Shown here: positions 1 to 35,041 of the stretch, in pieces
Layout of the letters: each line of letters starts with the position of its first letter
Numbering within the stretch: the stretch's first letter is position 1
Virus record (IMG/VR): IMGVR_UViG_2778261545_000002
Source: a virus
Lineage: Duplodnaviria > Heunggongvirae > Uroviricota > Caudoviricetes
DNA: 35,041 nucleotides
Strand: one strand, 5' to 3'
Position numbers and translations under genes: made by a program
Notes under the pieces: generated by a model
What the model saw: only the letters and a program-made list of their open reading frames with translations
Databases searched by the model: none
Told to the model about the DNA's origin: nothing

Positions 1-1362
1 ATGTTTAAACCGGAACTCCTTTCCCCGGCGGGAACGCTGAAAAATATGCGTTACGCTTTCGCTTATGGCGCAGATGCTGTTTATGCGGGCCAGCCGCGTT
101 ATTCCCTGCGTGTGCGCAACAACGAATTCAACCACGAAAATCTTCAGCTCGGCATCAATGAAGCCCACGCGCTGGGGAAAAAGTTTTATGTCGTGGTCAA
201 CATTGCACCGCACAACGCCAAGCTGAAAACCTTTATCCGTGACCTGAAACCGGTGGTGGAAATGGGGCCGGATGCGCTGATTATGTCCGATCCAGGGCTG
301 ATTATGCTGGTGCGTGAGCACTTCCCTGAAATGCCGATCCACCTTTCGGTGCAGGCTAACGCCGTGAACTGGGCGACGGTGAAATTCTGGCAGCAAATGG
401 GCCTGACCCGCGTGATCCTCTCTCGCGAGCTGTCGCTGGAAGAGATTGAAGAGATCCGCAATCAGGTGCCGGATATGGAGATCGAGATCTTCGTTCACGG
501 CGCGCTGTGCATGGCCTACTCCGGTCGCTGCCTGCTCTCTGGCTATATCAACAAGCGCGACCCGAACCAGGGCACCTGCACCAACGCCTGCCGCTGGGAG
601 TACAACGTCCAGGAAGGGAAAGAAGATGATGTTGGCAACATCGTACACAAGTACGAGCCGATTCCGGTGCAAAATGTTGAGCCGACGCTGGGTATCGGCG
701 CACCAACCGACAAAGTGTTTATGATCGAAGAGGCCCAGCGTCCGGGCGAGTATATGACCGCGTTTGAAGATGAGCACGGCACTTACATCATGAACTCGAA
801 AGATCTGCGCGCCATCGCCCATGTAGAACGCCTGACCAAAATGGGCGTGCATTCGCTGAAAATCGAAGGTCGTACCAAATCTTTCTACTATTGTGCACGC
901 ACCGCACAGGTTTACCGCAAAGCTATCGATGACGCCGCTGCGGGAAAACCGTTCGATACCAGCCTGCTGGAAACTCTGGAAGGTCTGGCGCATCGTGGCT
1001 ATACCGAAGGTTTCCTGCGTCGTCATACTCACGACGATTATCAGAACTACGAATACGGTTATTCAGTTTCTGACCGCCAGCAGTTTGTTGGTGAGTTTAC
1101 CGGTGAGCGCAAGGGGGACCTCGCGGCGGTAGCGGTGAAAAATAAATTCTCCGTTGGCGACAGCCTTGAGCTGATGACGCCGCAAGGCAACATTAATTTT
1201 ACCCTTGAGCACATGGAAAACGCCAAAGGCGAAGCTATGCCGATAGCACCAGGCGATGGTTATACTGTGTGGCTCCCGGTCCCGCAGGATCTTGAGCTCA
1301 ATTACGCGCTGCTGATGCGTAATTTCTCCGGGGAAACCACGCGTAATCCCCACGGTAAGTGA
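1..1362 (+). CDS. yegQ: Host peptidase U32-family protein YegQ (TrhP), complete 453 aa
   Basis: ORF starts at ATG at position 1; translation MFKPELLSPAGTLKNMRYAFAYGADAVYAGQPRYSL... matches E. coli YegQ from memory, including length 453 aa. Confidence 0.88.
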   Translation: MFKPELLSPAGTLKNMRYAFAYGADAVYAGQPRYSLRVRNNEFNHENLQLGINEAHALGKKFYVVVNIAPHNAKLKTFIRDLKPVVEMGPDALIMSDPGLIMLVREHFPEMPIHLSVQANAVNWATVKFWQQMGLTRVILSRELSLEEIEEIRNQVPDMEIEIFVHGALCMAYSGRCLLSGYINKRDPNQGTCTNACRWEYNVQEGKEDDVGNIVHKYEPIPVQNVEPTLGIGAPTDKVFMIEEAQRPGEYMTAFEDEHGTYIMNSKDLRAIAHVERLTKMGVHSLKIEGRTKSFYYCARTAQVYRKAIDDAAAGKPFDTSLLETLEGLAHRGYTEGFLRRHTHDDYQNYEYGYSVSDRQQFVGEFTGERKGDLAAVAVKNKFSVGDSLELMTPQGNINFTLEHMENAKGEAMPIAPGDGYTVWLPVPQDLELNYALLMRNFSGETTRNPHGK

Positions 1363-1390
1363 TTAATTTCGATTATTTTTCCCGGATGGA

Positions 1391-1446
1391 AAATTCTTAG
1401 AAACCGATCACATACAGCTGTATTTATTAAGGTTATCATCCGTTTC
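1391..1446 (+). promoter_or_regulatory. Probable cyaR promoter: TCACA half-site at 1408..1412 and -10-like TATCAT at 1434..1439
   Basis: TATCAT lies about 7 nt upstream of the inferred cyaR 5' end (1447). CyaR is known to be CRP-activated, but the CRP site is only a partial match to TGTGA-N6-TCACA. Confidence 0.45.
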
Positions 1447-1533
1447 GCTGAAAAACATAACCCATAAAATGCTAGCTGTACCAGGAACCACCTCCTTAGC
1501 CTGTGTAATCTCCCTTACACGGGCTTATTTTTT
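1447..1533 (+). ncRNA. cyaR: CyaR (RyeE) Hfq-dependent small RNA
   Basis: Sequence GCTGAAAAACATAACCCATAAAATGCTAGCTGTACCAGGAACCACCTCCTTAGCCTGTGTAATCTCCCTTACACGGGCTTATTTTTT matches CyaR as I recall it; ends in a stem-loop plus T6 intrinsic terminator. Confidence 0.85.
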
Positions 1534-1534
1534 A
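1507..1534. repeat. attL core: 28-bp direct repeat AATCTCCCTTACACGGGCTTATTTTTTA (P2-type att core, overlapping the cyaR terminator)
   Basis: Exact 28-bp copy recurs at 34539..34566; its reverse complement matches the remembered 27-bp P2 attP core AAAAAATAAGCCCGTGTAAGGGAGATT. Confidence 0.85.
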
Positions 1535-1597
1535 CGCGTAATACAATGAAATAAAAGGATTTATTTCTGGTCACGTCCACACATTGACCACATCGAC

Positions 1598-1634: not shown

Positions 1635-1853
1635 TTACATCCACATAATTTGCTGCCCTGACGGCAACGGGTGCGGCCTTACGGCGTGGACTTCTCCCGG
1701 CTTCACGATGTATCGCTGTACCGACTCATAAGTGATGAACGTGGCGCTGCAATTCACGTTCTGGCACTGGTGATAACGCTCTTTTGTCGTGTCAGTGATA
1801 TAGCGACTTGTACGCGCATGTGCGGCATGCTGGCATAAAGGACAATGAAACAT
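1635..1853 (-). CDS. ogr: Ogr late-gene transcription activator, C4 zinc finger (72 aa)
   Basis: MFHCPLCQHAAHARTSRYITDTTKERYHQCQNVNCSATFITYESVQRYIVKPGEVHAVRPHPLPSGQQIMWM matches P2 Ogr; the track ORF (to 1916) has a 21-aa N-terminal extension that I trimmed to the internal Met. Confidence 0.85.
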   Translation of the reverse strand: MFHCPLCQHAAHARTSRYITDTTKERYHQCQNVNCSATFITYESVQRYIVKPGEVHAVRPHPLPSGQQIMWM

Positions 1854-3577: not shown

Positions 3578-3591
3578 TTTTCGTCACCTCC

Positions 3592-6039
3592 TTAACCGTC
3601 ATGCATCATGCTGGCACGGGCGCGCGCACGTTTATCCCGCTCGTATTTTTCGAGCGCATCCTGTAACTGGCGGTCAAGCTGTGTCTCCGGCGCAGTACCG
3701 CCCGTCAGGCTGATGTGATATTCGTTTTTACTCTGGTCCACATAAGAGCGGCCAGCCGGTGCCGTGACCGGCTGATAAGCCTGATAGCCTGCATAAGAGC
3801 TGGTCGCCGGAATATAACCACCGGTGCCATACGTGGCGGCATTAGTCCTTGCGGCGGTCTGGTCAAGTGTGTCTGACTCTTTGTTGATAACACCGAGTTT
3901 TTCCAGTACCCAGTCAATACCACTGCGCAGTTTGTTGAACGCATTAAGCGGCAGCATCAACGCGTCAGCCAGTGCCTGCCCGAACATGACGCCCGTGTCA
4001 CGGCAACGGTTCAGGGTGTCCTGTGTGGCTTTAACCGGGGCAATCAGGTTTTTAAACCACTGCCACGCGGCCTGTAACTTTTCTCCCAGCCAGTCAAACA
4101 CCGGCTTAAGTGGCGTGAACAGTTCCCCCACCGGCGCAAATGCCGCTTTCAGCCCTTCCACCACACCGCCAAAGAATGCGCTGACAGGCTCCCAGTATTT
4201 ACGGATAAGCAACGCCCCGGCGACAATGGCGGCCACCACAGCCACAACCGGCCAGCTAATCGCCCCGATGGCCGTCATAACGGCACTGCCAACCGTCGTG
4301 AAGATTGCCCCCATTGCGCCTGCTGCCGCGATGATGGCATTGATGCCGGTGATAACCGGCCAGGCTACAAGGCCAATGGCACCGATGATGCCAGTAAGCG
4401 CCAGCGCGCCACCGGCAATGATGCCGATGGTTGACGCCAGTGATTTGTTTTTCTGGATCCAGCCGTCGAGTTTTAACACATACTTTGTGGCTGTCTGCGT
4501 GAGCTTACGCAGCGCGCCTTCCTGCTGGTCAAACAGGTCAGTCCCCACCGCCTCATAAGCGGACTGAAACTCCTTAAAGTCACCGCCGAGGTTATCCTGC
4601 ATGATTTTAACCAGCTCTTCCGTTTTACCGTCCGAGGCTTTCAGCGTGGCGGTCAGCTTATCCAGTTTTCCGCTTGCTGCCGCTGCCAGTAAAACGTTCG
4701 CTGATTTCAGGGCTTCCTCACCAAAAATGGTTTTAAGGTATTCCCCCTTCTGAGACGTTCCCAGCTTGTGTTTATCAAAGCTGGCCTGAATCTCTTTCAG
4801 AATGGTGAATAACGGACGCATATTTCCCTTTTTGTCCGAGGTTTTCACGCCAAGCTCTTTGAGTGCATCCCATGCTTTTCCAGTCGGTGCCTGTAATCGG
4901 GTGACAACGGCACTGCTACCCGTCCCCGCCATTGACCCCCTGATGTTATTGTCATGCAGCACACCTGTCATGGCTGCTGCCTGCTCAAGACTTACACCTG
5001 CCGTCCTCGCAACCGGCCCGAGGTAAGTCAGTGCATCACTGAGTCCCTGAAAATCAGCCGCCGACTTATTCATCGTTGCCGACAACACGTCGCCCACATG
5101 GCTGACATCATCATTTGACAGTTGAAAGGATGCCTTAGTCCCCAGCAACAGTTGCGCGTTTTCTTCCATCGACCGCTGATTCGCCAGTGCCATATTCAGC
5201 GTGACCGGCGTTGCCGCCTGAATAGCCGCAGCATCTCCACCCGCTTTCGCAATGATAATCTGTGCACCGGCTGCATCATCTGCCGAGGCTGCGGTATTGT
5301 CGCCGAGCTGGCGCGCCTGCTTGCGGAGTGCGGTCATTTCGGCGGAGTCTTTTGCCACACCGAGCACAGCCTGTAATTCTGAGTTTTTCTGCGCAAACTC
5401 ATAACCGGGCATCAGCAGCTTAACTCCGGCCATCGTTCCCGCAGCTGCAATCCCCACACCGGCAGCGCCCACTGAGGCCATATTTCCGGCCAGTTCCTTT
5501 CCTGCCTGATAACGCTGTTTGACTGCGTTAAGTTTTACCTGTTGTGCACTGACACGCGCCAGCGCGTCACGCTGACGGTTAAGCTGTGCGGTGGTTTCAC
5601 TGATACGGTTTTTCAGTCCCTGCTCATCATGTGCAAGATTGCGGGTATTAATTCCCACAACGGCCAGTTCCCGCTGCTGGCGTTTAACAGAATCCGTCAG
5701 GCGGTTATATTTCGCCTGTAAGTCCTCCGCCGCACGCTTTGCGGATTCCAGCACTTTCGCCTGAGCACGGGTCGGACGTTCGGTGTTTTTAAACTGTGTG
5801 GCAAGGGCTTCGGCTTCCTGCCGAGCCTTTTCAAGTGCATGACCAGTCACGGCGAGCTGTGCACTGGTCTTGCGAAATCCCTCAATACGGGATGCCTGAC
5901 CGTTCAGCTCGCGCAGTGATTTTTGTGTTTCCCGGATATCCCCCGACAGCGATTTGCTCGCTGTGCGGATGGATTTAAACGGGCGGGATGCCTGGTCAAC
6001 AGCCCTGAGCAATACCTGTAATTTTACATTGTTACTCAT
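3592..6039 (-). CDS. T: Tail tape measure protein T (815 aa)
   Basis: 815 aa as in P2 gpT; Ala/Gly-rich hydrophobic central segment typical of tape measure proteins; synteny. Confidence 0.88.
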   Translation of the reverse strand: MSNNVKLQVLLRAVDQASRPFKSIRTASKSLSGDIRETQKSLRELNGQASRIEGFRKTSAQLAVTGHALEKARQEAEALATQFKNTERPTRAQAKVLESAKRAAEDLQAKYNRLTDSVKRQQRELAVVGINTRNLAHDEQGLKNRISETTAQLNRQRDALARVSAQQVKLNAVKQRYQAGKELAGNMASVGAAGVGIAAAGTMAGVKLLMPGYEFAQKNSELQAVLGVAKDSAEMTALRKQARQLGDNTAASADDAAGAQIIIAKAGGDAAAIQAATPVTLNMALANQRSMEENAQLLLGTKASFQLSNDDVSHVGDVLSATMNKSAADFQGLSDALTYLGPVARTAGVSLEQAAAMTGVLHDNNIRGSMAGTGSSAVVTRLQAPTGKAWDALKELGVKTSDKKGNMRPLFTILKEIQASFDKHKLGTSQKGEYLKTIFGEEALKSANVLLAAAASGKLDKLTATLKASDGKTEELVKIMQDNLGGDFKEFQSAYEAVGTDLFDQQEGALRKLTQTATKYVLKLDGWIQKNKSLASTIGIIAGGALALTGIIGAIGLVAWPVITGINAIIAAAGAMGAIFTTVGSAVMTAIGAISWPVVAVVAAIVAGALLIRKYWEPVSAFFGGVVEGLKAAFAPVGELFTPLKPVFDWLGEKLQAAWQWFKNLIAPVKATQDTLNRCRDTGVMFGQALADALMLPLNAFNKLRSGIDWVLEKLGVINKESDTLDQTAARTNAATYGTGGYIPATSSYAGYQAYQPVTAPAGRSYVDQSKNEYHISLTGGTAPETQLDRQLQDALEKYERDKRARARASMMHDG

Positions 6040-11149: not shown

Positions 11150-13468
11150 TTATACCTGCGCCACGTTATACCAAGTCCCGTTAATGTATTTCTGCACCGG
11201 TCTGTAATATACGCCACCAATGTTATCGGCAGAGTTTGAGCCGGTATCCTGAACAATAATGCCGGAATATACACACCCGGACGGTGCCTGATGTGTCCAT
11301 GTCATGCCATTGTTCGCAGGTTTGTATGTGGCAGCACCACCAAGCCGGATATCCCGGACATAGCGTGAATCAAAATTACTATAGTTAGATGGTGATACCT
11401 GCCCGTTAACAGCAAAAGTGATGCTGTTATCTGTATTTCTCTGACTGTAAAAATGCCAGCCTGCATCATCACCTAATTCAGCCACCACCGGACGACTTGA
11501 GTTTCCCCACAAATTGAATGCGGCTTCCTTCGTGGATGTATTGCTGCTGCTGACCGTGAACTTTTTCCCGCTACCGGCACGTACTTTGGTACTTGAGACA
11601 ATATCACCTGTAACACTCAGGCCATGCCCCATTGACACTCCGCCATTGGCGTTATTGATAGTCAGCGGCCTTAAACCGTTCCATGTCCCAAATTTATCGC
11701 CAGAGGCCGTCAGCATTAAATATGTGCTGCCGCCATCATTCCTGATAAAGAATCCATAATTGCCATAAGCAATGCGCAGACCATTAGCACTGAGTGATGT
11801 AATCTCACCTCTTGAACGGAGACCATAAGCGGAGCTGAGTGATAATTCTTCCTGAGCATCAGTATTACCAGTCGCCCAGCGAACTACCCCGCCCTGTACT
11901 GTTTCATGCCAGACAGTGTCTCCTTCTCCACCACGAAACTTTCTGAGATATTTTTTGCCGCCTCTGGTGCCTGAACATAAGGCCGTAGACATATAGGCAT
12001 TCTGGCTACCGCCGTCCTGATTAATCGTTCCGGTCATTTCGTCGCCCTGACGATTCCAGTCACGACGCCAGCCGGGGGAGTAGCCGTCCCCATGATTAAT
12101 GTAAGTGAATTGCGCGCTGGTTGTACCGCCACCACTTGATGTTGTCGGCGTGGTCACTCGGATAGTGATTGCAGATTTAATTCCCATGACCTCGACGACA
12201 CAACCAGCCAGGTGGATATCACCACATCCGGTATCCGTAATGATTTTGTTATTTGCATATGACCAGGAGCCTTTGCACATCCAGTACGGATGATTAAATG
12301 CACCACGGGAATCCAGCCATTCAATAAACTGAGCGGTTGTCCAGTTTCCGGCTTCAGTACTCAAAGCGCCGCTATAAGCACGACAGGCACCGATATTTTT
12401 CGTGAAGGTATCCTTTCCCGGAATATCCGCACCATTCTGATCTTTCTGAAGACGTTTTTCAGCATTGTCATAGGCAGACTTCACCGCTTTTGGTGTTGCG
12501 GCCAGTGTTTCAGAATCACTATTGGTGGCGCTACTTAGCTGGACAAGACCTTTTCGCGCGGTGGTGGCATCCTGTGCAGTGTATTTCCCGTTAGCAAGGT
12601 CATACGCAGCCTTTACCGCCTTTAGCGTTGCCGCAAGCGTTTCAGAATCACTGTTGGTGGCGCTACTGAGCTGAACAAGGCCTTTTCGCGTTGTGGTGGC
12701 GTCCTGTGCAGTGTATTTCCCGTTAGCAAGGTCATATGCTGCCTTTACCGCTTTCGGCGTTGCGGCGAGCGTTTCAGACGTGCTGTTGGTGGCACTACTG
12801 AGCTGGACAAGGCCTTTTCGCGCTATGGTGGCGTCCTGTGCGGTATATTTCCCGTTAGCAAGGTCATACGCGGCCTTTACCGCTTTCGGCGTTGCGGCCA
12901 GTGTTTCAGACGTGCTGTTGGTCGCACTGCTTAACTGAGTAAAACCTTTTGCGGTCAGCGAGGCGTCCGGGTGACGTCGTGACTGTTCGTGCTCTGCAAT
13001 TTTGTCATCAACGTAATCCTGCGTCGCCATCACCGTTGTGGTGTCAATGGTCAGCTCCACTGAGGCCACACTGCTGACGATGATGACCATGCGGCAGGTC
13101 TGCGAACGCCCTGAGCCTTCGGCAAGTGCGGGTTTATAACTTTCGGCCATGTTCGCCACGGCAATTAACGTTCCCGCATCATCGTACAGGCCAAGCTCAC
13201 GCATCCAGAAACCGCCCACCTCCGGCGGAATAACCAGCTCTGCGATAATATAATTACTGTTTCGTTTGTCCTGGCTGATTTTGTTCAGCGCATGTCGCCA
13301 GACTTCATGGATAAGCCCGGTCTGTCCGGCATCCGGGACAGGCAATTTACCACCGCCATCCCCGACGGCCATAGTGGTAATGTTGACCTTCCGCCCTCCC
13401 GGTGCGGTTGCCGCTGCCAGCTTTGCTGCACCGGCAGTGGTGATAACGGTTCTGAATTTTGTGCTCAT
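11150..13468 (-). CDS. H: Tail fibre protein H (772 aa) with internal tandem tail-fibre repeats
   Basis: Position between I and G; contains about 3.6 copies of a 44-aa repeat KGLVQLSSATNS[TD]SETLAATPKAVKAAYDLANGKYTAQDAT; longer than P2 gpH (669 aa). Confidence 0.85.
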   Translation of the reverse strand: MSTKFRTVITTAGAAKLAAATAPGGRKVNITTMAVGDGGGKLPVPDAGQTGLIHEVWRHALNKISQDKRNSNYIIAELVIPPEVGGFWMRELGLYDDAGTLIAVANMAESYKPALAEGSGRSQTCRMVIIVSSVASVELTIDTTTVMATQDYVDDKIAEHEQSRRHPDASLTAKGFTQLSSATNSTSETLAATPKAVKAAYDLANGKYTAQDATIARKGLVQLSSATNSTSETLAATPKAVKAAYDLANGKYTAQDATTTRKGLVQLSSATNSDSETLAATLKAVKAAYDLANGKYTAQDATTARKGLVQLSSATNSDSETLAATPKAVKSAYDNAEKRLQKDQNGADIPGKDTFTKNIGACRAYSGALSTEAGNWTTAQFIEWLDSRGAFNHPYWMCKGSWSYANNKIITDTGCGDIHLAGCVVEVMGIKSAITIRVTTPTTSSGGGTTSAQFTYINHGDGYSPGWRRDWNRQGDEMTGTINQDGGSQNAYMSTALCSGTRGGKKYLRKFRGGEGDTVWHETVQGGVVRWATGNTDAQEELSLSSAYGLRSRGEITSLSANGLRIAYGNYGFFIRNDGGSTYLMLTASGDKFGTWNGLRPLTINNANGGVSMGHGLSVTGDIVSSTKVRAGSGKKFTVSSSNTSTKEAAFNLWGNSSRPVVAELGDDAGWHFYSQRNTDNSITFAVNGQVSPSNYSNFDSRYVRDIRLGGAATYKPANNGMTWTHQAPSGCVYSGIIVQDTGSNSADNIGGVYYRPVQKYINGTWYNVAQV
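12470..12949. repeat. Tandem 132-bp repeat array (about 3.6 copies) inside H
   Basis: Near-identical 132-nt units visible in the DNA (e.g. 12550 vs 12682); they encode the 44-aa repeat on the minus strand and a mirrored repeat in the antisense track ORF 12693..12938. Confidence 0.85.
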
Positions 13469-33445: not shown

Positions 33446-34459
33446 ATGGCAATCAAAAAACTCGATGATGGTCGATATGAAGTGGACATCCGCCCTACTG
33501 GACGTAACGGAAAACGCATCCGTAGGAAGTTTGATAAGAAAAGCGAAGCTGTCGCTTTCGAAAAATACACGTTGTACAACCACCACAATAAAGAATGGCT
33601 ATCAAAACCAACAGACAAACGACGTCTGTCGGAACTGACACAGATCTGGTGGGATTTAAAGGGTAAACACGAAGAGCATGGGAAATCTAATCTTGGAAAA
33701 ATTGAAATCTTCACAAAAATAACGAATGACCCATGCGCATTTCAAATCACGAAATCCCTTATCAGCCAGTACTGCGCCACCCGAAGAAGTCAGGGTATTA
33801 AACCTTCGAGTATCAATCGTGATTTAACATGTATTAGCGGCATGTTTACAGCCCTGATTGAAGCGGAGTTATTCTTTGGTGAGCACCCTATCAGAGGGAC
33901 AAAGAGGCTTAAGGAGGAAAAACCAGAAACAGGCTATCTCACACAGGAAGAAATTGCCTTACTGCTTGCAGCACTTGACGGCGACAATAAAAAGATTGCG
34001 ATTCTTTGCCTGAGTACAGGAGCACGTTGGGGAGAAGCAGCTCGTTTGAAAGCAGAAAATATCATCCATAACCGCGTCACGTTTGTTAAAACGAAAACAA
34101 ACAAACCACGCACCGTCCCGATCTCAGAGGCTGTTGCCAAAATGATCGCGGATAACAAACGAGGTTTTTTATTCCCTGATGCTGATTACCCTCGCTTCAG
34201 ACGAACAATGAAAGCAATAAAACCGGATTTGCCAACGGGGCAAGCCACACATGCACTAAGGCACAGCTTTGCCACTCATTTCATGATTAATGGAGGAAGT
34301 ATTATCACGCTACAACGGATACTAGGTCACACGCGGATTGAGCAAACTATGGTTTACGCTCATTTTGCGCCAGAGTACCTTCAGGACGCCATTTCTCTTA
34401 ATCCGCTAAGAGGTGGTACTGAGGCCGAGAGTGTCCACACAGTGTCCACAGTAGAGTAA
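33446..34459 (+). CDS. int: Tyrosine integrase (337 aa)
   Basis: Same length as P2 Int; C-terminal R...HxxR...Y catalytic pattern (ALRHSFATHF...GHTRIEQTMVYAHF); adjacent to attR. Confidence 0.9.
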   Translation: MAIKKLDDGRYEVDIRPTGRNGKRIRRKFDKKSEAVAFEKYTLYNHHNKEWLSKPTDKRRLSELTQIWWDLKGKHEEHGKSNLGKIEIFTKITNDPCAFQITKSLISQYCATRRSQGIKPSSINRDLTCISGMFTALIEAELFFGEHPIRGTKRLKEEKPETGYLTQEEIALLLAALDGDNKKIAILCLSTGARWGEAARLKAENIIHNRVTFVKTKTNKPRTVPISEAVAKMIADNKRGFLFPDADYPRFRRTMKAIKPDLPTGQATHALRHSFATHFMINGGSIITLQRILGHTRIEQTMVYAHFAPEYLQDAISLNPLRGGTEAESVHTVSTVE

Positions 34460-34538: not shown

Positions 34539-34566
34539 AATCTCCCTTACACGGGCTTATTTTTTA
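34539..34566. repeat. attR core: 28-bp direct repeat identical to 1507..1534
   Basis: Exact match AATCTCCCTTACACGGGCTTATTTTTTA; the flanking bases differ. Confidence 0.85.
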
Positions 34567-34723
34567 TGCATAAGCCCTATCCCTGGTCACCGTCTTCCAT
34601 TGACCACATCGATAGAATCTCCCTTCATAGCACGATGCCTTTCACGTAACGGCATCGTGCTCGCACAGGTTCCGGCTAAGCACAACCAGAACGCGCATGT
34701 TTGACGCTTACCAAAAAATATTC

Positions 34724-35041
34724 TCACTCTCCACATTTGAATGTCAGACGAGCGACGCCATGTAATCCTGCACCTTCTGTCTTCAGGTCAACTATCTGCA
34801 TTTTTTTGCCCTGAGTAACACAGAAATGGGCTGCATCATTTTTTACTATATTTTCTGCACCAGATATTCTGCCCCTGGCTAAAGAAGCTTCGGCTTCGGT
34901 GTAGTATTGGTTATCGAGTTTACGCTGAATATTACTTTTATATGCAAGACCAAATTTACCGATACTTGTCTCATCATTATGCACAGCACAACCAGACATA
35001 ATAAAAATACTAATTAATGATATAGCAGCTATCTTTTTCAT
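34724..35041 (-). CDS. yegR: Host lipoprotein, YegR-like (105 aa)
   Basis: Signal peptide with lipobox MKKIAAISLISIFIMSGC; the start codon is the last three bases of the window; position matches the yegQ-cyaR-yegR locus of E. coli. Confidence 0.6.
   Translation of the reverse strand: MKKIAAISLISIFIMSGCAVHNDETSIGKFGLAYKSNIQRKLDNQYYTEAEASLARGRISGAENIVKNDAAHFCVTQGKKMQIVDLKTEGAGLHGVARLTFKCGE

Follow-up and report, generated by a model that had tools for sequence, protein, structure and literature searches.

The locus studied here raises the question of what the host DNA directly to the right of a P2-like prophage is made of, and where its likeness to a phage arm comes from. The window, by which we mean the whole stretch of 35,041 nucleotides that was analysed, reads from yegQ through cyaR into a P2-like prophage of about 33 kb, which lies with ogr on its left and int on its right side, and finishes at the start codon of yegR (Table 1). 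In an earlier note on this DNA, the interval 34567-34630 just outside attR was taken for the scar of an earlier integration. It has long been known that P2 integrates at the cyaR site and that K-12 carries a remnant there, and the attB at cyaR is the classical P2 locI. As a P2 insertion site, cyaR contains Wphi2 in strain W, 'ogr-D'' in K-12 and P2*B in strain B, and is empty in Crooks (PMC3032704, Table 2). On the evidence given below, 34567-34630 is quite probably the left (attL-side) junction, now decayed, of an ancient P2-like element, which was inserted at the 3' end of cyaR and became fixed in E. coli.

Table 1 Features of the window around the two attachment cores, from left to right
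Feature	Position	Strand	Basis
yegQ/trhP, host gene left of the att site	1..1362	+	annotation in matching E. coli records
cyaR, small RNA gene, terminator overlapping the att core	1445..1530	+	Rfam RF00112, 100.7 bits, full length
attL core (core1), 27 nt, AATCTCCCTTACACGGGCTTATTTTTT	1507..1533	+	identical to the attP core of P2 AF063097
ogr-side arm, stretch matching the P2 IHF-protected region	1535..1566	+	aligns with IHF protein_bind of AF063097 (L008 1535-1568)
ogr-side Int arm-type site ('P arm')	1567..1597	+	identical to P2 L008 1570-1600
ogr, late-gene activator of the present prophage	1635..1853	-	ORF and translation; position as in P2
int, integrase of the present prophage	33446..34459	+	337-aa ORF; length and position as P2 int
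int-side arm, GTGTCCACA twice, 11 nt apart	34426..34452	+	identical to P2 Int "P' arm" (L008 1396-1422)
attR core of the present prophage	34539..34565	+	27/27 against 1507-1533, direct repeat
Relic, left part, 16 nt against 32 nt in the phage arm (IHF-site region lost)	34567..34582	+	alignments; seen at empty sites
Relic of Int arm-type site	34583..34613	+	BLASTN, alignments, unique 15-mer; 17-mer identity to EC11 arm
Core-like 13-mer, GAATCTCCCTTCA	34615..34627	+	exact 10-mer; 15/27 as 27-mer
10-bp hairpin GCACGATGCC / GGCATCGTGC, yegR 3' untranslated region	34630..34660		minus-strand fold
yegR, small lipoprotein gene within the relic island	34724..35041	-	105-aa ORF, annotated YegR

The host-side 31-mer CTGGTCACCGTCTTCCATTGACCACATCGAT (34583-34613) and the phage-side 31-mer next to ogr, CTGGTCACGTCCACACATTGACCACATCGAC (1567-1597), agree at 24 of 31 positions without gaps and in 27 of 31 columns when two 1-nt gaps are admitted; the earlier note had the coordinates and the exact 15-mer right, and its 'about 27 of 31' is thus the gapped count. 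The two sequences have in common an exact 8-mer and the exact 15-mer CATTGACCACATCGA, which starts in the window at positions 1582 and 34598 only (0.01 expected by chance). When the host flank was compared with the whole window by BLASTN, a self-comparison which that note had proposed, the pair formed by relic and arm was the sole significant non-self match (E = 0.002). The global alignment of arm 1535-1600 with flank 34567-34616 scored 20.5, against 6.0 +/- 1.8 for dinucleotide shuffles, and none of the 2000 shuffles reached the observed score. Furthermore, a 17-mer is common to the relic and the arm of the P2-like prophage in E. coli EC11. It could be argued that the flank is ordinary host sequence which resembles a phage arm by chance, as the profile HMM score of the relic was marginal (E = 0.099; seven phage arms against 80 outgroup loci and E. 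coli, unrestricted) and the core-like 13-mer that follows is weak as a 27-mer, but a chance likeness would have to explain the unique 15-mer and the shuffle result, the correct position and orientation relative to the core, and a matching decayed right junction at the predicted place, which makes it extremely unlikely.

The phage counterpart of the relic is known from P2 itself. The P2 record AF063097 labels 1572-1599 as the Int 'P arm', within the sequence identical to window 1567-1597, and the order in this record is IHF-protected region, Int 'P arm' and ogr terminator. Arm sites of the P2 type are direct repeats with the consensus tgTGGaCa (PMC3448106). On the plus strand of the window, the ogr-side repeats read GTCCACA and GACCACA, 11 nt apart, and the same motif recurs on the int side at 34431-34450. 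An identical arm architecture was found in the P2-like prophages at cyaR of other E. coli, Citrobacter, Buttiauxella and another enterobacterium. The relic is like the P2 'P arm' in that it adjoins the core, on the same side and in the same orientation as in a real attL, in containing CTGGTCAC and CATTGACCACATCGA, and in one intact repeat, the second one (GACCACA at 34602-34608), which together with its surroundings is identical to the second repeat of the phage. Unlike the P2 'P arm', it has lost the first repeat, with GTCTTCC where the phage has GTCCACA, so that one survives of the two tgTGGaCa direct repeats which lie about 11 nt apart in a P2-type arm; the 32 nt of the IHF-protected region are represented by a 16-nt spacer without clear similarity to them, and neither an ogr terminator nor an ogr gene follows. 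Since the first repeat was lost and 16 nt replace the 32-nt IHF region, the flank at 34583-34613 is, judged from its sequence, a real but degenerate derivative of a P2-type phage arm. Homology to the ogr-side attP arm in turn points to descent from an older P2-like element, and the phage origin proposed in the earlier note is thereby upheld, with an Int arm-type site as the counterpart.

The direction of transfer might also be reversed, an aberrant excision having passed the E. coli flank on to P2-type phages as their ogr-side arm, as the arm and the host flank are equivalently placed 3' of the core, which is what such an event would give. We consider this very unlikely, because P2-like prophages of several genera conserve an arm with IHF site and paired repeats in hosts that are without the flank, because the repeat motif is also present on the other phage arm, and because it is the host copy that is degenerate, with one repeat broken and the IHF region gone. 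As a separate feature of the left part of the relic (34567-34582), it holds ATAAGCCC, which repeats the GGGCTTAT of the core in inverted form; the two form an 8-bp inverted repeat around TTTTTATGC (window 34558-34582), which is seen at every empty site.

The 13-mer to the right of the arm relic (34615-34627) had been described as a degenerate partial att core. The 13-mer does occur at this position, and with its 10-mer AATCTCCCTT the start of the core is present for a third time in the window (0.06 expected in the window), 77 nt from the core, but its status as a core is doubtful, as the 27-mer obtained by extension matches the core at 15/27, a level also reached by background. There is better support for an old attR core about 540 nt to the right of it, past the window end. 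The 13-mer is polymorphic and reads AATCCTCCTT in K-12 and UTI89; in these two strains the 9-mer GAATCCTCC at the 13-mer site recurs where the old attR core has its left edge, and the chance of such sharing within 830 nt is about 0.003. Both the third copy of AATCTCCCTT and the shared 9-mer would be accounted for by two ancient layers, in which the 13-mer is a true decayed core, the segment from core1 to this second core is a nearly deleted prophage, and the segment from the second core to the old attR, with yegR, is an older one. This possibility is tentatively retained as a doubtful one: the core similarity past the first 10 nt is at chance level, no arm relic follows the 13-mer, its likely ancestral form matches the core at only 8/10, and it may instead be the decayed A-run and terminator stem that follow the phage arm. 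The single ancient element is preferred in what follows.

The age of the relic was judged from its distribution. The 64-nt interval is present as a single copy in 5327 of the 5426 complete E. coli genomes (about 98%), with 1456 exact matches, and the two flanks lie at most 0.9 kb apart in 4563 of the 5426 genomes. With an empty-site probe made by joining window 1200-1534 to 34567-35041, the prophage-free junction was recovered in one piece, at 96-100% identity, from many E. coli genomes, and at three unoccupied loci (L002, L003 and L004) the relic stands directly 3' of the cyaR terminator. In K-12, the cyaR core is followed by a modern-looking ogr-side arm, ogrK, a D fragment, the right 17 nt of the core and then the relic. 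Since the relic lies to the right of ogrK-D', it is older than the K-12 remnant and distinct from it; they are different DNA, present in K-12 as separate adjacent segments. The K-12 ogrK-D' (yegZ; 'ogr-D'' in PMC3032704, Table 2) and the relic are alike in att site and orientation, and both are deletion derivatives of P2-like prophages, but the former is young, with an arm identical to that of modern phages and with ogr and part of D retained, and is lineage-specific and placed to the left, whereas the relic is species-wide and also present in K-12. Two relic-bearing 'phage' records, ON470606 and AY639599 ('phage TP', a K-12-type locus), are prophage or chromosomal sequence which includes host flank.

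These data bear directly on a strain-specific recent scar, left by a P2-like prophage that resided here shortly before the present one. Its geometry would fit a tandem integration, in which a new attR is followed by the old ogr-side arm, but the identical sequence at sites without a prophage, its occurrence in 98% of the complete genomes of E. coli (phylogroups A, B2 and the window type), and the position of K-12's own remnant to the left of the relic, speak against it. The recent scar is thus refuted by the empty-site junctions and the distribution over 5327 of 5426 genomes, and is almost certainly wrong. The earlier note fared accordingly: its remnant particular to this strain, beside which the prophage had landed, did not hold up, the relic being carried by 5327 of 5426 genomes including prophage-free ones, while the serial use of the cyaR site was supported by three occupants, namely the ancient relic, the K-12 ogrK-D' remnant and the present prophage. 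The comparisons with prophage-free loci and with the K-12 ogrK remnant which it had recommended returned the same relic, directly after the cyaR terminator in the former and to the right of the remnant, as a separate segment, in the latter. It had also envisaged that the same sequence might occupy empty sites as ordinary host DNA unrelated to phage arms; the first half of this is true, and the second half is contradicted by the arm homology.

The ancestral state of the site was read from related species. In Escherichia sp. E1V33, whose yegQ is 93% identical in nucleotide sequence to that of the window, and in about 30 other species of Enterobacteriaceae, yegS begins 75-145 nt after cyaR, with neither relic nor yegR in between, so that the relic is absent where the ancestral junction is kept. 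E1V33 is the only close Escherichia outgroup in this comparison, and the insertion may be older and have been lost in the E1V33 lineage. A megablast search of E. coli genomes for the ancestral cyaR-yegS junction left the diverged yegS part unaligned. The cyaR-yegS spacer of E. coli measures 0.8-1.0 kb, strains differing by an indel of 170 bp; phylogroups A and B2 and the window type all conserve it, and it is intact in 5317 of 5426 genomes. The GC content of this island is atypical, 0.40 against 0.50-0.54 in its neighbours.

The other end of the island carries a decayed right junction, about 330 nt past the window end. Homology of the E. coli sequence to the ancestral flank restarts 87 nt before yegS, and immediately to the left of it, at the place expected for the ancestral cyaR end, a stretch of 27 nt, AATCCTCCATACTTGAACTGACTTTTT, agrees with the core at 18/27 and in exact register, a level reached by 2 of 70,055 background 27-mers. 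The 30 nt which precede this decayed core agree with the present prophage's int-side arm at 20/30 when offset by 1 nt, where the null maximum was 19 in 69,494. In a local alignment without positional prior, 9 of 500 shuffles reached the score of this right arm, and sensitive BLASTN of the island against the window did not recover the right-arm similarity and found the arm relic alone. The island is therefore flanked by direct repeats, of which the left core is 27/27 and the right copy 18/27. Within the island there is no recognisable phage gene, and tblastn with all stop-to-stop prophage ORFs for phage protein remnants gave noise only, so that the evidence for phage origin is limited to the two ends, with about 50 nt on the left and about 57 nt on the right.

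As an alternative account of the right-hand side, we considered that the old attR core had received the yegR segment by an insertion which duplicated 9 bp (GAATCCTCC). This was rejected as the main model, because the int-side arm similarity reaches the right-hand copy and terminal inverted repeats were not seen. Members of the YegR family occur almost exclusively in E. coli and Shigella, and a comparison of YegR with phage genomes gave matches only in records that include host flank (ON470606 and AY639599); its distant homologues are few and occur in unrelated non-phage contexts. Two sequences (L101 and L102) were tried as diverged YegR outgroups and rejected, as they are E. coli assemblies with frameshifted neighbour genes and altered T-runs, both of which are probably assembly errors. 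The 170-bp segment that differs between strains is present in UTI89 and in L005 (3190-3360) and absent from K-12 and from the window, in which it would fall between 34718 and 34719; it lies just downstream of the yegR stop codon, and a 41-aa hypothetical protein is annotated there in ON470606. The minus strand of 34600-34726 folds into two hairpins (z = -3.0); a terminator scan of the flank found no T-run terminator, and an Rfam search detected CyaR alone.

From these observations we infer the following order of events for the ancient element. In an E. coli ancestor, a P2-type Int would have recombined the phage attP with the cyaR terminator, by which the ogr-side arm, with its IHF site and Int arm-type repeats, would have been placed directly 3' of the rebuilt cyaR end, and the native cyaR end and the int-side arm would have been displaced together to the opposite end, beside yegS. 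Deletions would then have stripped the recognisable phage genes and left about 0.8-1.0 kb, consisting of the arm relic, the hairpin, yegR, an AT-rich spacer, and the decayed int-side arm and core. The left core would have stayed intact because it doubles as the CyaR terminator, and the right core would have decayed to 18/27. Being intact, the left core would still be usable as attB, and later P2-like phages, such as the present one and the source of the K-12 ogrK-D', would have entered it; their attR would thus always abut the old arm relic. Stacked remnants at attachment sites in RNA genes are a familiar pattern. The prophage and island remnants stacked at tRNA and tmRNA genes are similar to the present case in that the 3' end of an RNA gene serves as a reusable attB; selection on the RNA preserves the intact copy, and the displaced one decays. 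The cyaR relic differs from them in that the target is the terminator of a small RNA, and in that the relic has no remaining phage gene and is fixed throughout the species.

A question that follows is whether the fossil repeat still does anything. It would be compatible with a phage origin that the surviving repeat still binds the N-terminal domain of P2 Int and thereby alters integration preference or excision efficiency, tuning the site preference or the integration/excision balance of successor phages. CCGTCTTCCATTGACCACATCGATAGAATC is invariant in four divergent haplotypes in which neighbouring positions vary, and the repeat is identical to the second repeat of the phage; but the invariance rests on four haplotypes, which carry no statistical power, only one of the two repeats survives, the IHF region is missing, and the core lies at half the distance. 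A natural 13-nt deletion, found in one strain, moreover takes away part of the relic, which is consistent with continuing neutral decay. Such a function is thus improbable, and the relic would be inert at present. Experiments on P2 Int with the natural attB should still reckon with an arm-type repeat 45 nt from the core.

The cyaR terminator has received insertions in other species as well. In the expanded spacers of Enterobacter, Pseudescherichia and others, a second core copy occurs 79-83 nt before yegS and matches the core at up to 23/27; across five loci (L036, L070, L039, L031 and L106), the second copy lies 79-87 nt before yegS. The islands at these loci and at L052 are like the E. coli relic island in being enclosed between the cyaR core and a second core copy, and some of them have clear P2-type arms, but they differ from it in their cargo and in that their arms or cores are better preserved. 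They are independent events. The cyaR terminator can thus be seen as a recurrent landing pad which gathers small cargo islands, such as cdtABC beside a P2-type arm in an Escherichia-like contig, an sseK2-type island upstream of yegS in Salmonella, and others in Enterobacter and Kluyvera.

Several of these loci were looked at individually. In L039 (3634-6300) and L052 (3633-5580), a good P2-type ogr-side arm is followed by yegS at a distance of 2.7 and 1.9 kb, respectively; no match to Ogr was found in either, and the second core is decayed. These two are small P2-like remnants and younger analogues of the E. coli fossil. In L106 (2168-2500), a P2-type int-side arm that is nearly intact comes directly after cdtABC, with a 22/27 core 87 nt before yegS, and YegS is 90% identical to that of E. 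coli; the contig probably belongs to E. albertii, as judged from the cdtABC genes, and has the look of a toxin-carrying P2-like remnant at the cyaR site. Upstream of yegS in Salmonella enterica (L107, 1-2500), there are an effector gene of the SseK/NleB family (sseK2-type) and a CesT-like gene, and a core-like copy before yegS was not found there. A record titled Enterobacter hormaechei B56 (L070, 3607-5610) has a yegQ 98.4% identical in nucleotide sequence to that of E. coli, a 2-kb island after cyaR with two ORFs (321 and 199 aa) without assigned identity, and at the end of the island the 23/27 core copy and an Enterobacter-like yegS flank. E. coli EC11 (L090, 2568-3700) carries a different P2-like prophage at cyaR, with the variant core ACGCAGGC; an AT-rich cargo ORF lies between its arm and terminator and an ogr-like gene, in the position that yegR has in the fossil. 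In a metagenome-assembled enterobacterium (L040, 3634-3700), the start of a 284-nt spacer matches the P2-type arm at about 27/39 (nhmmer E = 0.5), and may be an independent, more decayed relic in the equivalent position.

The older, species-wide fossil at cyaR was not described in the literature searched, the scope of which did not include the 1992 P2 attachment-site paper. Under the preferred reading, the 'empty' P2 site of E. coli is not pristine, as it holds two decayed ends of an older P2-like element, and the cyaR-yegS spacer with yegR would be redefined as a fixed prophage fossil. If this is true, the last cargo of the fossil would be yegR, a gene regarded as part of the E. coli core. 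For annotation, prophage-boundary callers should stop P2-like prophages short of the relic flank.

Two further observations concern the terminator and the present prophage. In the E. coli cyaR terminator (window 1490-1533), the left half GCCTGTGT pairs with the right half ACACGGGC with a U.G wobble, and this right half equals the P2 core. In Kluyvera, the two halves are GCCCGTGT and ACACGGGC and are perfectly paired, and in the Escherichia outgroup the right half is ACGCAGGC (loci compared: L009, L013 and L021 around 3590-3633). The present 3' end of E. coli cyaR may therefore have been supplied by a phage. Finally, the 772-aa ORF of the present prophage (11150-13468, minus strand) contains a tandem array at window 12467-12968, which is built of a 132-nt unit in about 3.8 copies (85-88% matches).
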